DNA of 61,922 bases, counting the filler, from Stramenopiles sp. TOSAG23-2 (taxonomy: Eukaryota), in assembly GCA_900128395.1 (NCBI GenBank). It is 4 parts of 4 records of this genome, joined end to end, with 100 filler letters (N's around TTAATTAATTAA, not from the genome) between each part and the next. Parts side by side here need not be neighbours in the genome. Positions count along the whole stretch, not along the records: positions 15,534 to 30,956 come from LT649709.1; 3 more parts are not named here. One strand, given 5' to 3'. The translations under genes were made by a program, and so were the position numbers. The stretch's first letter is position 1, and the number at the start of each line of letters is the position of its first letter. Below are positions 6,690 through 46,556 of this stretch, one piece after another. The notes under the pieces were generated by a model, which saw only the letters and a list, made by a program, of their open reading frames with translations, had not been told where the DNA came from and searched no databases.

Positions 6690-8903
6690 TTATGCAACTA
6701 CACCATTCATACTTAAATATCTCTCCGCATCCAATGCACTCATTGCACCACTTCCAGCACTTGTAACAGCTTGACGATAAATATGATCAGCAACATCACC
6801 GGCTGCAAAAACACCATCAACTGATGTTTGTGTTGATTCATGATCTGTTATCAAATATCCAGCTTCATTCATCTTTAAATGACCTTCCAAAAATTTTGTA
6901 TTTGGATCATGTCCAATAGCAACAAATGCACCTTCGCATGATATCGATTCTTCCGTTTTCAAATCATCTACAACAGTTTCTACACGTACATTTGTCAATA
7001 CCGTTTTCCCACTTTCTTTATGGACCTTTGAATCAAATGATTTTACGACAGTATTCCATTTAATTTCGATTTTATCATGAGCAAAAACACGTTTTGCTAA
7101 TATTTTAGATGCTCTGAATGTATCTCGTCGATGAATAATGGTAACTTTCGAGGATGTACGTGCTAATACTAATGCATCTTCCATTGCAGTATCGCCTCCA
7201 CCAATAACTACAACTGGCCGATCACGGAAAAGAAAACCATCGCAGGTAGCACAGCTACTGACACCCCCACCACGTAAATCATATTCACCTGGCACACCAA
7301 GCCAGCGACTACTTGCACCAGTTGCTATGATGATACTTTTTGCTTTTACAATGGTACTTTTTGTATCATTTAAAACCAATTCAAATTCTCCTGCTGCATC
7401 TTTCATCGACTTGACTTTAATAATGCTTTCTGGTACCATCCTCGTTTTGAAGAAATTTGCTTGTCGTCGCATGATCGTAATGATTCCTCGCCCAGTCGCA
7501 TCGTAACCGACGACACCTGGATAATTTTCAACATCCACACCTTTTCCCAACAATTGGCCACCAAATGATGGCGCAATGACTAAAGGTTCCAAGCCTGCTC
7601 GTGCAGCATAAACTGCAGCAGATAATCCAGCGGGACCGCCACCAATAATTACAATTTTTTCCATGGGTTTAATTACACTGATATCTTGGAAATACATATC
7701 ATCACCTTCTCGTTCCTCACGTCTTCTTGCTAATTCATCCTCCAACATTATTGCAGGTAATGCAGTAATATCAAATATAACTTGTCCAGTTGATGGATCA
7801 ATCTCACCATATACATTGTTATCATCGTTGCCATCAGTTGTTGTACTTCTTCCACCATTACCAGCATCATCAGCACCAGGATTCTGATGCTCCTTATTCA
7901 CTCGTGCATGTGGTGTGTCCCCAGTGCGTGGAATTGCTTCTGGTGCTTTGTTGTCATATTTTTTTTTTAACATTCGCATTAATTTAGCTGTTTTGCTTTG
8001 ATACTTTGCAGCAATAGTTTTAACAGATTCCAATTTGCTCTCATCCACTTCTTTATAAAAATCTATCAATGCTTGCTCGGTTACTTCCATATCGACATAT
8101 ACACCTTTTTCCTTTGCCTCCACTGCCAATTGTTCAGTAGCTTGTTGCAAACCACGTTGATTGGCACCTGAAAATTCATGCCTCTTCTTTCCATTTAGAT
8201 AAAATTGAAATGTTGGCATTGCATTTACAAAACATGCACGCGATGTTTCATAATTGCGATTTACATCAATTTTTAAAAATACCGCTTGACCTTTCATTTG
8301 CTTTGCAAGTTTTTTGTAAAATGGAGCAATCATTCGACAAGGTCCGCATGAATGACTGAAAAAATCTACCACTACTGGTAGGCCGGTATCATCTTTGTGT
8401 TGCTGCAATGCAGCACGAAATTGATCATGTGTAGTAATTTCTACAACATCACCTTTGGCATATGCTACAGAACCTTTCCCATCATACTCAACATCTCCAC
8501 CAAAATCAGATCCTTGTTCTTCAAAATAATTTTTATAAACATACATAATAAAAATAAATAACATAACTGCATTTTGCCAAGTTGGTTTTGGTAAACTAGA
8601 ACCTTCTGTACCACTTGTATACGTTCTTCTGCTACTACTGTTGTTGTTATTATTATTACTATATGTAGAATGGACAGGCGAACGAGTAGTTGGTGTTGGT
8701 TTTGGTCGTTTCGGACGATTTTTGATATCTGGCATATGTTTCTCTTTTCCAATTGTACGCACGTATAAAGCAATCAGGTCTGATTTTTCAATACATTTGG
8801 AACAATCAATATTTTTTTCTTGAAATTTTTTTTTTAATTCACTAACAGATAATTTATTCGCATCTTGTCGCGCTAATGCAGCAGCAGCAGCGGCGGCAGA
8901 CAT
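6690..8903 (-). CDS. Membrane-anchored fusion: SAP/MANF-C-like CxxC domain, TM, thioredoxin, low-MW thioredoxin reductase
   Basis: KLSVSELKK..CSKCIEKSDL; TM WQNAVMLFIFIMYVY; Trx VVVDFFSHSCGPCRMIAP; TrxR IIGGGPAG, GGVSSCATCDG, VIGGGDTAME, GVFAAGDV, YRQAVTSAGSG. Confidence 0.92.
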   Translation of the reverse strand: MSAAAAAAALARQDANKLSVSELKKKFQEKNIDCSKCIEKSDLIALYVRTIGKEKHMPDIKNRPKRPKPTPTTRSPVHSTYSNNNNNNSSSRRTYTSGTEGSSLPKPTWQNAVMLFIFIMYVYKNYFEEQGSDFGGDVEYDGKGSVAYAKGDVVEITTHDQFRAALQQHKDDTGLPVVVDFFSHSCGPCRMIAPFYKKLAKQMKGQAVFLKIDVNRNYETSRACFVNAMPTFQFYLNGKKRHEFSGANQRGLQQATEQLAVEAKEKGVYVDMEVTEQALIDFYKEVDESKLESVKTIAAKYQSKTAKLMRMLKKKYDNKAPEAIPRTGDTPHARVNKEHQNPGADDAGNGGRSTTTDGNDDNNVYGEIDPSTGQVIFDITALPAIMLEDELARRREEREGDDMYFQDISVIKPMEKIVIIGGGPAGLSAAVYAARAGLEPLVIAPSFGGQLLGKGVDVENYPGVVGYDATGRGIITIMRRQANFFKTRMVPESIIKVKSMKDAAGEFELVLNDTKSTIVKAKSIIIATGASSRWLGVPGEYDLRGGGVSSCATCDGFLFRDRPVVVIGGGDTAMEDALVLARTSSKVTIIHRRDTFRASKILAKRVFAHDKIEIKWNTVVKSFDSKVHKESGKTVLTNVRVETVVDDLKTEESISCEGAFVAIGHDPNTKFLEGHLKMNEAGYLITDHESTQTSVDGVFAAGDVADHIYRQAVTSAGSGAMSALDAERYLSMNGVVA

Positions 8904-9627
8904 ACTATTGTAATATAATTCTTTTCTTTTTTTGATATCTTCTCTATATATAATGTATATATATGTTCCTCAACATCTCTCTCATGCTTAACCTATTCGA
9001 ATGAATTATTAAAGATGTGTTTGTGCGTGTGTTAGATGTGTGGGTGGCGGGGCGCGGAAAGCTGGAAAGCCCGTACTTAAACTGAGCGTGACCGTAGAAT
9101 GTACGCCCTATCATGGGTTGTCACGCAGAGCATTAGCATAGGAATCTAAATCTAAATCATTCGATCCATCAAAAATGATCATCTCTCCACTATATCCCCG
9201 GTACTAAAATTATTAAGGAATATAAATAGATATATACTAACCTCTAGAATGCATCGAAAAGAATTAAATAATGAAATAATATTACAAATTTAGCTATATA
9301 ATCATGATATTTCAATTAGTTTCTATCATAAATTCCTTAATATAATATTTCGACAAAAACCAAGGCAGTGGATAATAATAAAACAGAACCTGATTAGTGC
9401 ATTACAACGTTGAGCCGTATTTTTTTTTATTTAAATTTTTGGATACTCCCATTCTAATTCCATTATAATTACTCACCAATATATATACTAATATCTAATA
9501 TACATATATATAAATATATTATATCAACAAAATGAAAGAGATAAAGAGTAATACATTCAATTTTAGTTTATAATATAGTTGAAGATAAACACACACACAC
9601 ACACACACATACACATATATATAAACA

Positions 9628-25161: not shown

Positions 25162-25339
25162 TATATATATATTCAACATGGGGGCATTATTGTCGCGGCT
25201 CTGGAAAGAGCATAGTCTCAAAATTATATCTGTATGTATTATATGTGTTGTATATATATATTCAACATGGGGGCATTATTGTCGCGGCTCTGGAAAGAGC
25301 ATAGTCTCAAAATTATATCTGTATGTATTATATGTGTTG
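25162..25339. repeat. Perfect tandem duplication, 89-bp unit, covering the nexin start codon
   Basis: Units start at 25162 and 25251. Confidence 0.88.
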
Positions 25340-28300
25340 CAACGTTAGATCCAAGGAAAATATTATATCATTTAATATCTTCGACACGGAACGTAATATT
25401 ATCTGGTGTTGGTATTGTTGCCGCAGTAGCTATGGTTTTAACTGTGCGCGAAGCATATATTATATTGCAGGAAAACAAACGACAAGAAGAATTATTAGCG
25501 AAGCAGAAAATTGATGATAGAAAAAATGCGAATGTGTTTAAAAATGCACGTGAAAAATTGGATAGAATGATTCGGCGTGGTGGGAAAAAAAGATTATTAT
25601 CTTGTTCATTGTTTTTAAACGATGTTTGTAATATGCCTTCTTCCGTATCTAATCAATTAGGGGAATTAGTTGAATTGTTTGTTCGAGATTTTATATGTAA
25701 TTGGTGGGTTAATATTGGCACAGATTATACATTTGTTGATGATGTACGTTTGACTACTTTAGGGGCTGTTGTAGAAATATCAAGACGAGCAAGCACCGTG
25801 AACGTTCCAGTTTTTTTAGCAACCGATGCATTGGAAGCTTTGCGACATCATATTATATGGTTTAAAGAGTTATCTAGACGAGTAGCTTCAAAGCATTCAG
25901 CTCGGACGGTAATGGGTTCAGTCAACACTACTTTTTTTGAAGATAGAAACCGATTGATAGAAGCCGCTTTAAGAAGTGAAGGTCGAATGCATGTTGCATG
26001 TGAATCAAAAGAAGCTGAATTAGAATATTTACGACATATAACAAATGAAATATTAGCAAGAATTTTAACTAATAAAGATTATGAATGCCCAATGATTCGA
26101 CATTTATTTCGAGAAGCACTAGCGCAAACAGTATTTTTGCCTATTTTTACTAATTTTTCGGAACCAGATTATATGAACTGGATCATTGAAAAGATTTTTG
26201 ACGACACGCCTACGAAAGAAGAAGAAGAAAAAGATACGGAAAATGAAACAAATGTGATAGGAGAGAAAGATCACGTTGATGGAAATAATATAAATGACGA
26301 CCGAAATAAATATAGTAATGTAAAAAATGATGAGAAAATAAGCCAAAGGTATTATGCTGGTGTCATGTCAAATAAGTTAGCGGGAAAATATTTAAGTGGT
26401 ATGCCTGCATGTACATTTTTAATACGAAGAGATGAAATTAATTTAAATACTTACATTATATCCTCAGTTGGATATGTAAATAGTAAAGCTCGAAAAGTGG
26501 AAATGAAAAATAAAGATCATATTATTGGTGAATTTGGCCGTGCACGAACAGTATCTGCACCGGAAATGGTTGCCAACGTGACAGCGAAGCTTTCTGTTTC
26601 TCATTGGTATGTGCGTTTGCATAATAGTATATTCCATTTAATTGGCCAAGATACGATGGAAACAAATAATAATAATAATAACGATTTGCTGGAAAATGTA
26701 TTGTATCGTGGAAATACAATGACTAGTATATTGTACCATATGAAATCCCGCTTTGTTGCCGGGTTGCATTTTGTTGATGGTAAAGCGCCAACATTTGAAA
26801 TTTTACCATGGTCTATCTCGCGGTATTTAGATGTGAATTCGTTACCAATCTGTAAAATTATATTTAAAAAAAACAAAGATTCTGTTGTTGTAGATAACGA
26901 TAGAGAAAATGTTTATGTTGAAATAATGTCTCGTGCTGATATTGTCCGTAGAAAAAGTATTAAAAATGAATCAATGCAGGATGTATTAAATGAAGAATAT
27001 GCGACAGGGGGGAAATTAGATGAGTCTGTTGTCGATGATAATGTCTCGTGCTGATATTGTCCGTAGAAAAAGTATTAAAAATGAATCAATGCAGGATGTA
27101 TTAAATGAAGAATATGCGACAGGGGGGAAATTAGATGAGTCTGTTGTCGATGAAAATCATATAGAGGAACAAAAACGTAGACAAACAATGCAAGATTTTA
27201 GCTTTTTAGGTTTCGCTGGAGATAAAGAGGAAATAGATTTCTTAATTAACAATGCTTCAAAAACAACAACAGCGTCTTCGTCAAGCGCATCAACTCCGAG
27301 CAATTCACCGAAAAAAAATATTAGGAAAAGTAGCACAAACGTTGGTAATGCAAATAATGATAATAATGATAATAATAATGTTGATAATAATACTAGTAAT
27401 ATTGATGCAACGTTTGATGATTCATATTTAGATCGTAAAGCATCGTACTTAAGAGATGTTACAAAACATCTAAATGACGATAGTGTATATGATGATCCAA
27501 ATAATATACAAAAAATAAATGAAAAAAAAAGGAAAGAATTCCGACAACGACTTTTAAATGAACTAGAATTAGCATTGAGTAAAGCTCAGAATGATTATTG
27601 TTCAGGCGATTTAAAAAATGATATGCTTGAAAAACACCATAAAAGTGTACGTAATTTAGTATATGCAATTGAAAATATACTATTATTTGGCTTGAAAAAG
27701 AAAGAACAAAATGATGGAAGTTCGAAACTGTCATATTGGTCATATTTGTCAAGTATATCCAAAATTTCAAGCGATGCTGATTTAGTTGTAGAAATGATTG
27801 GCCAAATGTCAAATATTGAGATACTTACAAAGGATACGTTTTGGGAGGAAAAGAAAACATCTGATCAGGAAAAAGAGGGGACAATCACATCAACACTTAT
27901 GGAGGCAAATGCAGAATACATACAAAATTTAGGTAAAAGTCGTGCCTTTTTAATCGTTGGACTAAATAAAAGTTTATTGACTACAGATTTAACATATTTA
28001 ATGAAAGATAAACCAGCAACTGATCGATATTATGAACCATATTCCATCGTTTCCTCCGCAAAAGACAAAAAGTATTTCATGGCTCAATTAGACATTTTAA
28101 TGACAATGGAATTCAATATAAATATGAATGACGTATGGGATGTTAACAGTGATGATTTAATCAACCAGGAAAAAGCGAAAGTGCTAGCTCGAACCAAGCG
28201 AAATTCACAAGAGCATCGTAAGAAATTACAAGAAGAAATCGAGAAAAATAATAACACAAGATCCGTTTTGCGAAAGTTAAGCGCTGGTAGTAGTAGCAAA

Positions 28301-30166
28301 GTTAAAGATATTGGCCGTAAATTGATGAAATTGAATTTGTTTGGTAACAAACCAATACCCAAAAAACGCGCAAGTAGTACTGGGGATAAAAGCAATAATA
28401 ATAATGATACCAATGAAAAGGATGATGATAGTAATGATAAAGGATTTGAGGAAGAGATCCAAAAATTAAAGGGCAAAGGAAGTGGTAAACAGCGAAAGCA
28501 GCGTATTAATAGTAATAACAGTAGTAATACAAAAAGGAAGAAAAAGAAGAATATTCGGCAAAATAGTTTATGGATCGGGCCAGATGGCCCAGAAGTAGAT
28601 GGAAATAATGTTCCAATTGAAAGCCCAATTAATTCTGATGGAAAAAGACGTAATCGTACTTCAATGTTAACATCAAATGGTCGTGAAAGCATTAATGGTT
28701 TAGGGCAAATAAAATTAGAAGAGATTAATGGACCGTTTTCTATCATTTTACGAGCAGAGGTTACCCATGCTTCATTAGTCGATAGTGAAAAAAAGACATC
28801 CTTTTTTCAAAACAATCAACCACATGTCGAATACCATATTCGAGTGCAATCAACTGTTACGATTGGGGACTATGAATCAGTTGATACGTGGGAAATTACT
28901 CAACGATATCGAGTTTTTTTTCAATTGCACAGAACGTTGAAAAGTACATATAAATTAAGAATCTCCTTGCCACCGAAGCAATTAGCTTTATTTAGTGCTG
29001 AAAAATTTGATCGTCGATTTTTAGAGACAAGACGTGTTGCTTTAAATACATATTTAAATGAAATATTAGCTCATCCAGCAGCTAGTCACTCCAATTATGT
29101 GCTTGCATTTTTAGATGTACCTAATAATGTATCGGAATGGAAGTCTGTTTGGAAAAGGATGAAAGAACGTGATACAGAATCTTTTATTTTTAATTCTAGC
29201 CCTAGAAAGAAACGTTCTGCTCGCTTTGGTGGCGACAATAATAATGGTATTAATAATAATATTAATAATAATAATAATATCTCTACCATCAATGAGATCG
29301 ATGTTGGTAGAAGTAAAAGTCACCATGTGTCATCTACATTTAATACTAATGATAATTATATCAATAATGGAAATAATAATAATGAACGATCAATATCGCT
29401 TAATGCAACTGGAGATAAACACTATACTAATAGTAACAATAACAATGATAATGACAATAATAAAAAGCACGTGGAAAAAAAATTAGCATCAAACAATAAT
29501 CTAAGCAATAAAAAAAATGAAAAAGGAAAGAAATTATTAAATAATAAAATAAACATTAGTAACAAATCTTCCTCCCGTAATAATGTTAAGAATAAAAAGA
29601 AGAAATCGAAAAAACCTACCAGACTAACAACTACCATTGAAATGGCATCTGTTGAACATCATATATTTAATCTTGCAAGAGAAATCTTTGAAATTGATGA
29701 TTTGAGTTTAATGAGGCGTAAATTTGTAAATATCATGCATGGTTTTATGAATATTACAAGCAAAGGTAGTGCATATAATTATTTGAATAATGTCTTGGGA
29801 CATATGGTAGAAACAGAAAAAATAGCAGATACAGTGAAATTATTAAAAGATTATTTATGGCCAAATGGCGAGTGGGATGACGAACCTGTCCCGGAGGATA
29901 CACCAGAAGTAATGTTGGCAAGGCGTGAAAAATCATTAGAACATTTGCGAAATAATGTACCTGAAAGTTTAGAAAATTTGTTCACAAAAAATAAATGCCA
30001 AGATGGAATTAATACGTTGCATGATTTCTTGCAATGTAAAATCCTGGTGAAGAATTTTCTTTATACATTTGTTGATCTACTTTTATTGAAATTATTTGAC
30101 GATATATCAGTTGTTGGTTTGCATCAAGTTAGGAAAAAGAGGAAAGGGATGGAAGTGTTGTTGTGA
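25267..30166 (+). CDS. PXA-family sorting nexin: TM-TM-PXA-SH2-like-RUN-PX-Nexin_C (split by a 115-bp duplication)
   Basis: PXA: VRDFICNWW, ELEYLRHIT, SEPDYMNWII; SH2-like: YYAGVMS..AGKYL..P.CTFLIR; RUN: AIENILLFGLK, GKSRAFLIVGLNK, RYYEPYSI; PX: QRYRVFFQLH, LPPK, FLETRRVALNTYL; Nexin_C: DYLWPNG, LHDFLQCKILVKNFLY. Confidence 0.88.
26923..27152. repeat. Perfect tandem duplication, 115-bp unit, frameshifts the nexin gene
   Basis: Units start at 26923 and 27038. Confidence 0.9.
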
Positions 30167-30275
30167 ATATTTTTTAATTTTTTTTATATTTGATGTACAT
30201 GTATGTTATATTATATATATATAAATATATTTTTTTTAAATTTTTACGAGTATATATCCTCGTATATATATATTA

Positions 30276-30332
30276 TGCAAGTGTCAACGTCAGCAGCAGT
30301 TTCTTTTTACTGAAGACACGTCATTCACTCAA
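30276..30332 (-). ncRNA. Candidate eukaryotic SECIS element (cis-acting 3' UTR RNA structure)
   Basis: Minus strand: gagtga-ATGAC-GTGTCTTCAGT-AAAAAGAAACT-GCTGCTGACGT-TGAC-acttg; AUGA/GA core, 11-nt helix II (9 of 11 paired including GU), unpaired apical AA run; starts about 45 nt after the stop. Confidence 0.75.
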
Positions 30333-30373
30333 TATTCTAGACTAGTTCAAATAATAATCATATATGTACAATT

Positions 30374-30673
30374 TTATAAACTACTTTCCTCTGGTACTAA
30401 AACAAATTGCTGAATTTTAAAAGGCATCCAACAACCTTCAGGATCCGTAGGTATAAATTCGTTTTTACCGGGCTGTTTAATTTCAAAAACATGAAGCCAC
30501 TTGTTGGTTTTTGCTTCACCAATTAGTTTCTTCATATCCACTACTTCTCCACGGAGAGTTGCATTACATTTTGGCCAATTACCATGGGCTGATCTTCCAG
30601 TTGGTGAACGCCAAAACATACCTGATCATCCACCACCTTGTTTCTTCATAATAAATGTTTGATGTTTTGACAT
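30374..30673 (-). CDS. Putative small selenoprotein (99 aa, Sec16 encoded by UGA at 30628-30626)
   Basis: aaaatcATG start, MSKHQTFIMKKQGGG-TGA-SGMFWRSPTG... in frame with the tracked 81-aa ORF; SECIS-like hairpin downstream. Confidence 0.75.
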
Positions 30674-30901
30674 GATTTTAACGTTTAATTTTATTTGATT
30701 TCTTTATTAATTCAATGAATCAAATCTCTTAATGTTTGTTAGCAAATACGATGTGTTTTTATTATGAATGTATTTCGGCATGCTCGTGCATCGACTAAAA
30801 GAACAACAATTGAACAACAACTTCTTTCTTGTATATACTTGTTTATACCAAAATCGTCATCAATCATCATCTTTTTCTGGCATTTTATTACCTTAACATT
30901 G

Positions 30902-30956
30902 TGCATTGATTCATTTTTAATACTTTTTCTACGGACAATATCAGCACGAGACATTA
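30902..30956 (-). repeat. 55-bp inverted copy of 26924-26978 at the contig end (assembly-graph overlap)
   Basis: Exact reverse complement, exactly 55 nt, ending at the linker. Confidence 0.9.
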
Positions 30957-31056
30957 NNNNNNNNNNNNNNNNNNNNNNNNNNNNNNNNNNNNNNNNNNNN
31001 TTAATTAATTAANNNNNNNNNNNNNNNNNNNNNNNNNNNNNNNNNNNNNNNNNNNN
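30957..31056. other. Artificial contig linker
   Basis: N44-TTAATTAATTAA-N44. Confidence 0.98.
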
Positions 31057-46456: not shown

Positions 46457-46556
46457 NNNNNNNNNNNNNNNNNNNNNNNNNNNNNNNNNNNNNNNNNNNN
46501 TTAATTAATTAANNNNNNNNNNNNNNNNNNNNNNNNNNNNNNNNNNNNNNNNNNNN
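46457..46556. other. Artificial contig linker
   Basis: N44-TTAATTAATTAA-N44. Confidence 0.98.

Follow-up and report, generated by a model that had tools for sequence, protein, structure and literature searches.

A probable selenoprotein gene of an unnamed family of small proteins with a predicted SH3-like fold in Stramenopiles sp. TOSAG23-2

A gene on the minus strand of a 61,922-nucleotide stretch of DNA from Stramenopiles sp. TOSAG23-2 (GCA_900128395.1; the whole stretch is referred to here as the window) is, judging from sequence evidence, very probably a real and expressed eukaryotic selenoprotein gene, in which a single in-frame UGA codon is read as selenocysteine (Sec). This reading is based on the conservation of the UGA codon and its flanks among orthologs, the correspondence of Sec in this clade to Cys in more distant homologs, a hairpin resembling a selenocysteine insertion sequence (SECIS) downstream of the stop codon, and the presence of the gene in RNA libraries. 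As an explanation of the data as a whole, a selenoprotein gene belonging to an unnamed family with a predicted SH3-like fold is favored with nearly the same high confidence.

The predicted coding sequence is a single exon with a frame of 99 codons (30374..30673, minus strand), extending from an ATG at 30673-30671 to a TAA at 30376-30374. The listed 81-amino acid open reading frame (ORF; 30374..30619, minus strand) continues 18 codons upstream to this ATG through a single TGA, which occupies codon 16 (30626..30628), so that the 99-amino acid product of the original prediction is recovered when the layout is derived anew. Stops occur in frame ten codons 5′ of the ATG, and on the transcript codon 19 comes after two AUGs of the same frame, at codons 1 and 9; the ATG of codon 19 (30617..30619) serves as a false start for the 81-amino acid ORF in public gene calls. 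Translation would begin with the ATG at 30673, which is the first AUG of the transcripts observed, and the product would be a 99-residue protein in which the UGA is decoded as Sec, at residue 16 in the context G-G-G-U-S-G-M-F-W-R. The proposed absence of a CxxU or UxxC motif also holds, with the sequence G-G-G-U-S-G surrounding the Sec and the nearest Cys 20 residues away. The second Cys of the protein, C81, is found in 6/6 Sec-type rows of the family alignment described below (A2) versus 11/44 of the others.

A scan of metagenome contigs yielded 209 pattern matches, among which seven loci (L001-L007) were confirmed. Locus L001 is 99% identical to the window and L005 is almost identical to L006, so that six independent lineages are represented. 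The seven loci show 41-99% identity and range in coding GC content from 0.37 to 0.59. Exactly one in-frame TGA, at the identical codon, is observed in all seven, both by tblastn alignment through the stop and by reading of the DNA. The peptide upstream of the TGA is retained as F-[IV]-M-K-K-Q-G-G-G, F-A-M-N-K-K-G-G-G or M-K-F-x-K-L-G-G-[GS], while the Gly codons beside the invariant TGA vary synonymously (GGT/GGG/GGA/GGC). At codon 19, L004, L005 and L006 read ATC (Ile) and the database protein P0083 has Val, which indicates that no downstream start is available at this position in these three lineages. An intron of approximately 150 nt with GT...AG borders (about 460-610) is located just before the D-P-x-G-C-W stretch in L007, while no intron interrupts the gene in the window or in five other loci. 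The viral and prokaryotic genome collections searched yielded no relatives of the Sec clade.

A word-index protein search recovered eight relatives sharing 55-99% identity, of which seven begin at [MV]FWR, with the residue that follows S-G, while the eighth (P0007) begins further downstream, at MDMKKL. These starts in the public catalogues are what would be expected if the TGA were a true stop, the product being an 81-residue protein started at the ATG of codon 19 (30619) and the codons before it representing a short upstream open reading frame or non-coding sequence; they are, however, also what a gene caller stopped by the TGA would produce. The true-stop explanation is very unlikely, given the Ile or Val at codon 19 in three lineages, the preservation of the upstream residues as protein with synonymous changes, the Cys homologs that run continuously through the site, the prediction that residues 5-11 form the first strand of the barrel described below, and the two in-frame AUGs, at codons 1 and 9, ahead of codon 19 on the transcript. 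Homologs starting at MFWR had been named in the original prediction as grounds for its rejection; Ile or Val at codon 19 in L004, L005/L006 and P0083 deprives such starts of this force. Three full-length public calls of orthologs (P0083, P0090 and P0101) show Trp at the UGA, presumably as a result of calling with a code in which TGA specifies Trp, and P0101 also translates through the L007 intron. A further relative, P0003 (86% identical), lacks ten mid-protein residues (R-G-E-V-V-D-M-K-K-L), which may point to an allele with a deletion or to a variant arising in assembly or splicing.

An exhaustive HMMER search, in which the 99-residue query carried C in place of U, identified 61 proteins at E-values up to 0.001. 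The 44 of these homologs that extend over the N-terminal part were combined with the window protein, translations of four loci and P0083 into an alignment of 50 rows (A2). Most of the 17 excluded proteins begin at or after FWR, while P0061 (a repeat protein), P0056 (which looks chimeric) and P0062 were also left out. In the TGA column, 43 of the 44 full-length non-Sec homologs have Cys and one has His. The Cys motif is likewise carried by P0041, P0056 and P0059, which lie outside the alignment. The most conserved stretch of the family is G-C-[TS]-G-[ML]-F-W-R, and the Cys homologs P0025, from a diatom, and P0022 align straight across the TGA in a tblastn search against the window (E-value: about 4e-12). 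The check suggested in the original prediction, a search for TGA or Cys at this position of homologs with conservation on both sides, thus returned TGA in 7/7 loci and Cys in 43/44 homologs. The nearly invariant family Cys, in the motif G-C-[TS]-G-M-F-W-R, would accordingly have been replaced by Sec in the window clade.

The family to which these proteins belong appears to be restricted to eukaryotes and to consist of unnamed small proteins. No functional name is attached to any of the 30 protein clusters examined, the named ones being designated 'hypothetical' or 'uncharacterized', with named members derived from Leptocylindrus danicus, an Ochromonadaceae sp. and MMETSP transcripts. One cluster also includes an unrelated 931-residue protein (P0105), which was set aside. 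Pfam returned no families for the window protein at E-values up to 10 and nothing relevant for ten homologs, in keeping with the earlier statement that the product could not be matched to known selenoprotein families. A Met-Gly N-terminus is found in 16 of the 50 aligned proteins, and several of these starts appear to fit the usual pattern for N-myristoylation.

The Cys of the homologs, and the W printed at this position in some public calls (P0083, P0090 and P0101), could also be accommodated by a variant nuclear code that assigns TGA to an amino acid, either Cys as in euplotids or Trp, with no recoding involved. The window itself argues strongly against this. Among its 28 ORFs of at least 180 codons, 12 end in TGA, 13 in TAA and three in TAG, and TGA is therefore an ordinary stop in the window, as had been stated in the original prediction; one of the genes concerned is the neighboring RUN-PX-Nexin_C gene, which terminates in TGA 42 residues past its last domain. 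Furthermore, all 11 other Cys codons in the ORFs of the window gene and L001-L006 are TGT or TGC and all 28 Trp codons are TGG, TGA being used for none of them, while the site in question is never TGT, TGC or TGG. The loci also span a coding GC content of 0.37-0.59 and as such derive from several lineages. A variant code is hence considered as improbable as a true stop at this position.

Downstream of the coding sequence, a SECIS-like stem-loop (30270..30335, minus strand) can be folded from helix I, a 5′ AUGA, helix II, an A-rich apical loop and a 3′ GA, a layout obtained in a constrained fold, by counting of the pair ladder (10/12) and in the uniform test described below. The ATGA (30324-30321) starts 49 nt after the TAA and is followed by 12 nt, an A-rich nonamer and two copies of TGAC. 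The apical loop, AAAAGAAAC (30299..30307), holds an unpaired A run in the constrained fold. The base after the 5′ AUGA of the core (30321..30324) is C or U in each of the six independent loci, and that after the 3′ GA (30284..30285), which lies within UGAC, is C in each. The first TGAC was rejected as the 3′ side of the core, as it gives a poor helix, whereas the second (TGA at 30286-30284) pairs to form a helix II with ten standard pairs in 12 positions. The ATGAC-N11-AAAAA...TGAC motif of the original prediction is thus present, although 49 nt rather than approximately 45 nt from the stop, and the 11-bp helix proposed there is roughly correct, amounting to ten pairs in 12 positions with the second TGAC only.

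The same arrangement recurs among the orthologs. Folds constrained at the core give the SECIS layout of helix I, AUGA, helix II, apical part and GA in 6/6 independent 3′ untranslated regions (UTRs), all of which have AUGA[C/U]...GAC in common. A uniform hairpin criterion, applied with our own script, called for AUGA, a GA 30-135 nt further on and at least nine of 12 ungapped positions inside the core to be paired. Five of the six independent 3′ UTRs passed, with exactly one site each, 34-112 nt after the stop, compared with 9-84 out of the 300 dinucleotide shuffles made for each UTR and 38/365 window tiles, or approximately 10% of the controls. An earlier, looser script, now superseded by the uniform test, passed three of six lineages against a background of 0.126 per 300 nt. 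The 5′ arms are similar in sequence among the window, L002, L003 and L007, and the 3′ arms have changed in a compensatory manner, a C-G pair in one locus being, for example, replaced by U-A in another, or an A-U pair by C-G. No change from the window hairpin is seen in L001 or in either of the two RNA runs covering it, though the flanks vary. Two of the SECIS-like elements have extended upper parts, the helix II arms of L002 (2381-2485) being separated by 68 nt and L004 (712-828) having a rod of approximately 111 nt.

Several results nevertheless speak against a selenoprotein. The window hairpin contains three G-U wobbles and a 2x2 mismatch, and L004, whose fold needs a bulge and a greatly extended upper stem, fails the uniform test. 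A SECIS model match, the lack of which the original prediction had counted toward refutation, was not obtained, with the Rfam SECIS families giving none at E-values up to 10 on the window region or any of the seven loci, nor on 96 nt around the hairpin or 116 nt of L003, the sensitivity of the model to protist SECIS elements being uncontrolled in these searches. Nothing in the whole window, SECIS included, reached the Rfam gathering score, and the free fold of the 3′ UTR is no more stable than shuffles (z +0.84). Among the proteins, the aligned homolog P0065 has His at the Sec/Cys site, and P0042, a doubtful gene model excluded from the alignment, has Phe.

The lack of a covariance-model SECIS match and the thermodynamic weakness of the window hairpin would be compatible with programmed or near-cognate readthrough of the UGA without Sec machinery, by insertion of Cys, Trp or Arg, the hairpin being either incidental or a stimulator. 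Readthrough stimulators, however, usually adjoin the stop codon, and this hairpin lies 300 nt from the UGA rather than next to it. The hairpin moreover presents an AUGA...GA core and an A-rich loop at SECIS spacing, five of six lineages pass the hairpin test and all six share AUGA[C/U]...GAC, while the site itself is the invariant Cys of the family, in the classic Sec/Cys pattern. Readthrough of this kind is thus improbable, if somewhat less so than a variant code or a true stop, and decoding of the UGA as Sec remains the preferred reading.

The TGA is clearly not an assembly error. Among the matches listed, 20 public runs contain part of a 651-nt stretch around the gene, and six of these are RNA libraries. 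Contigs of four RNA runs from four studies, all poly-A or cDNA metatranscriptomes, cover the ATG, the TGA, the stop and the hairpin. Together they span 30249..30729 (minus strand), from the 5′ UTR to past the hairpin, with contig X15 at 30274-30682, X16 at 30345-30664, X17 at 30367-30729 and the X18 contigs at 30249-30388 and 30336-30710. The contigs are colinear with the window and show no joints, and can in themselves neither prove transcription nor mark ends, so that the uncovered stretches at 30150-30248 and 30730-30800 are not read as transcript ends. The contigs differ from the window at 30361, 30366, 30374 (TAA to TAG), 30389, 30476 and 30554 and by a 5-nt deletion at 30269, while no difference in any of the four runs falls within the TGA or in 30284-30324. 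Reading of the covered 5′ part by eye located no ATG between 30729 and 30674. Local duplications and runs of N occur nearby in the window, as might be expected had the TGA arisen through an assembly or sequencing error or in a pseudogene. However, L001 (99% identical), five other lineages and the RNA contigs from the four studies all carry the same TGA, and the frame is otherwise intact and conserved, which leaves this the least credible of the alternatives. A read error at the TGA, which the original prediction had allowed might overturn it, is contradicted by L001 and the four RNA studies alike.

A confident AlphaFold (AF2) model of the window protein generated from alignment A2 (predicted local distance difference test (pLDDT): 89.7; predicted template modeling score (pTM): 0.81) contains five strands (residues 5-11, 39-46, 58-66, 82-84 and 90-94) and a short helix. 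Strand 1 is encoded upstream of the TGA and is modeled as part of the barrel, with the Sec placed in the long loop that follows it. When compared against 48,161 chains with VIA-align, the model gave a best Z-score of 5.5 (4krt_B; root-mean-square deviation (rmsd): 2.8; 66 residues aligned), with seven chains at a Z-score of at least 5. The neighbors are almost all SH3 or bacterial SH3b domains (Z-score: 4.2-5.5; rmsd: 2.2-4.0 Å; 54-81 residues aligned), and none of the structural neighbors listed is thioredoxin-like. In the ESM Atlas, the Cys homolog P0025 retrieved its own unnamed clusters and weak SH3 leads (0.86-0.87). Foldseek with the model returned nothing at E-values up to 0.001, and the family profile gave a single chance-level match among PDB sequences (E-value: 0.39). 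A Z-score of about 5 is weak, within the range that the tool itself calls common, and to that extent counts against the fold assignment; the comparisons are nevertheless a weak but consistent pointer to an SH3-like beta barrel rather than a thioredoxin fold. The window protein differs from SH3 and SH3b domains in matching no SH3 sequence model in Pfam and in the modeled Sec-bearing loop, which is much longer than the RT loop. To our knowledge, no redox-active SH3 family has been described. By analogy with other selenoproteins, the Sec in this loop would act as a redox-active nucleophile.

A possible function is suggested by the domain context of the Cys form. In the 280-residue protein P0022, an MsrB-like domain is located N-terminally and the Cys form of the selenoprotein domain C-terminally. 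A search with P0022 recovered 12 further proteins of 264-298 residues, covering 91-99% of its length. The 13 fusion proteins are 52-100% identical, include a UniRef entry from Aplanochytrium stocchinoi and in two cases are encoded on contigs of 140 and 190 kb. A profile of the 13 fusions matched only MsrB chains in the PDB (5/5; E-value: 3.4e-4 to 8.7e-3), while a single sequence scores 15.1 bits against Pfam SelR, below the cut-off of 24.9. The Cys of R-Y-C-I-N in the MsrB-like part and the Cys of C-T-G in the selenoprotein domain are invariant in 13/13 fusions, whereas His precedes G-W-P-S-F, where the aligned Bacillus MsrB has Cys. The MsrB-like domain of the fusions thus appears to keep the catalytic Cys while lacking the usual resolving Cys site. 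A search based on alignment A2 found no fused forms of 491-2000 residues, a range that excludes the lengths of the known fusions. A large and highly conserved stand-alone MsrB-like family (P0122-P0228; 155-220 residues; approximately 60-73% identity) was also observed in diatoms, other stramenopiles and a red alga. Its members lack a precomputed Pfam domain, are called MsrB by one source and, on reading of a further alignment (A3), appear to have neither zinc CxxC pairs nor the usual resolving Cys.

The recurrent fusion of the Cys form to an MsrB-like domain with a catalytic but no resolving Cys forms the basis for a tentative proposal that the protein has a methionine-sulfoxide or thiol redox role, either resolving or recycling an MsrB-like enzyme as its partner or acting itself as a reductase. 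MsrA and MsrB are themselves fused in bacteria, a situation comparable to the MsrB-like fusion, and both rely, as the family of the window protein would, on a single catalytic Cys that is replaceable by Sec. The Phe-Trp within three residues after the Cys or Sec may loosely resemble the active-site motif of MsrA. The window protein nevertheless matches neither PF01625 (PMSR) nor PF01641 (SelR), and its predicted all-beta SH3-like fold is unlike either enzyme. The proposal is further weakened by the fusions carrying Cys forms from lineages other than that of the window, by the absence of an MsrB-like gene from the window, in which no second copy of the selenoprotein gene was found either, and by a poor model of the fusion (pLDDT: 61; pTM: 0.44), in which the domain contacts are not resolved. 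More doubtful still is the fuller possibility that the family represents the first SH3-barrel selenoprotein family and forms part of methionine-sulfoxide repair in marine protists, which would explain the recurrent MsrB-like fusion. If so, the Sec or Cys in G-[U/C]-x-G-M-F-W-R would resolve and recycle a divergent one-Cys MsrB-like enzyme or itself reduce a sulfoxide.

The window protein shares with the known SECIS-dependent selenoproteins of eukaryotes (e.g., SelW/T/H/M, Sep15 and GPx) a single in-frame UGA at a conserved Cys of its homologs and a 3′ UTR stem-loop with an AUGA...GA core and unpaired A residues. It is set apart from them by the lack of a CxxU/UxxC motif and of a Pfam family, and by the predicted SH3-like fold with the Sec in the loop after strand 1. 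As far as the available portions of PMC2375036 (Lobanov et al., 2007) and PMC7539508 (Jiang et al., 2020) describe them, the selenoproteomes of protists and algae offer a parallel in marine organisms whose selenoprotein genes are shortened in public calls. The available text of PMC7539508 lists 42 algal selenoprotein families, including one designated 'Hypo', and that of PMC2375036 three 'hypothetical' selenoproteins of Ostreococcus (Hypothetical protein 1-3), which, like the window protein, are small selenoproteins without an assigned function and come from marine algae. According to the same part of PMC2375036, one of the hypothetical selenoproteins of O. tauri has the only ATGA-type SECIS of the species, long upper stems are common there, and long 'mini-stems' occur in Ostreococcus and Dictyostelium SECIS elements; the GC-rich L004, with its AUGA core and very long upper stem, resembles the Ostreococcus elements so described. 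No matching family is named in the available portions of PMC7539508, PMC2375036, PMC6627142 and PMC3753652. The literature searched likewise held no description of the family, nor did full texts contain its motif strings, the 'Hypo' and Ostreococcus proteins being compared by description only. There is an appreciable, though minority, chance that the family is already included among these hypothetical selenoproteins; it is, however, unnamed and probably new to the selenoprotein catalogue. In either case, no account of the fold class, the Cys family or the MsrB-like fusion was found in the literature, to the extent that these sources were accessible.

The remainder of the window consists of AT-rich eukaryotic nuclear DNA (GC content: about 0.27-0.39). 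The convergent neighbor of the selenoprotein gene (27020-30166, plus strand) encodes the RUN-PX-Nexin_C protein, while other window genes encode PXA, GRIP, PH plus kinase, AAA and Sel1 domains. A 759-residue ORF (6693-8969, minus strand) combines a thioredoxin domain with a thioredoxin reductase of the low-molecular-weight type (Pyr_redox_2; E-value: 1e-47), as in an NTRC-like fusion. No tRNA gene was found in the 62-kb window. Three pairs of 44-N runs (15434-15533, 30957-31056 and 46457-46556), the members of each pair 12 bases apart and the pairs spaced by approximately 15.5 kb, resemble masked sequence or the joints of scaffolds; no more than about 230 nt separates one pair from the selenoprotein transcript downstream of it. 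Beside this N run, an ORF at 30739-30954 (minus strand) is an inverted repeat of the N-terminus of the 1048-residue RUN-PX gene (27020-27100, plus strand). The end of the PXA ORF (25216-27054; repeat at 26990-27054, plus strand) duplicates residues ~25-45 of the same gene. These repeats around the RUN-PX gene look like the result of duplication on a local scale or of chimeric joints in the assembly.

Additions to the eukaryotic selenoprotein families are rare, and nearly all families known so far are thioredoxin-like. A Sec/Cys family for which another fold is predicted would as such mark an unrecognized redox-active site across a set of unnamed protist proteins, for which the MsrB-like fusion offers a concrete and testable function. 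The presence of the gene in poly-A metatranscriptomes of several marine studies suggests that it is in use in the sea. In the public catalogues, however, it is present only in truncated form, as 81 residues, or with the UGA rendered as Trp, which shows that selenoproteins are lost or miscoded in marine gene atlases.

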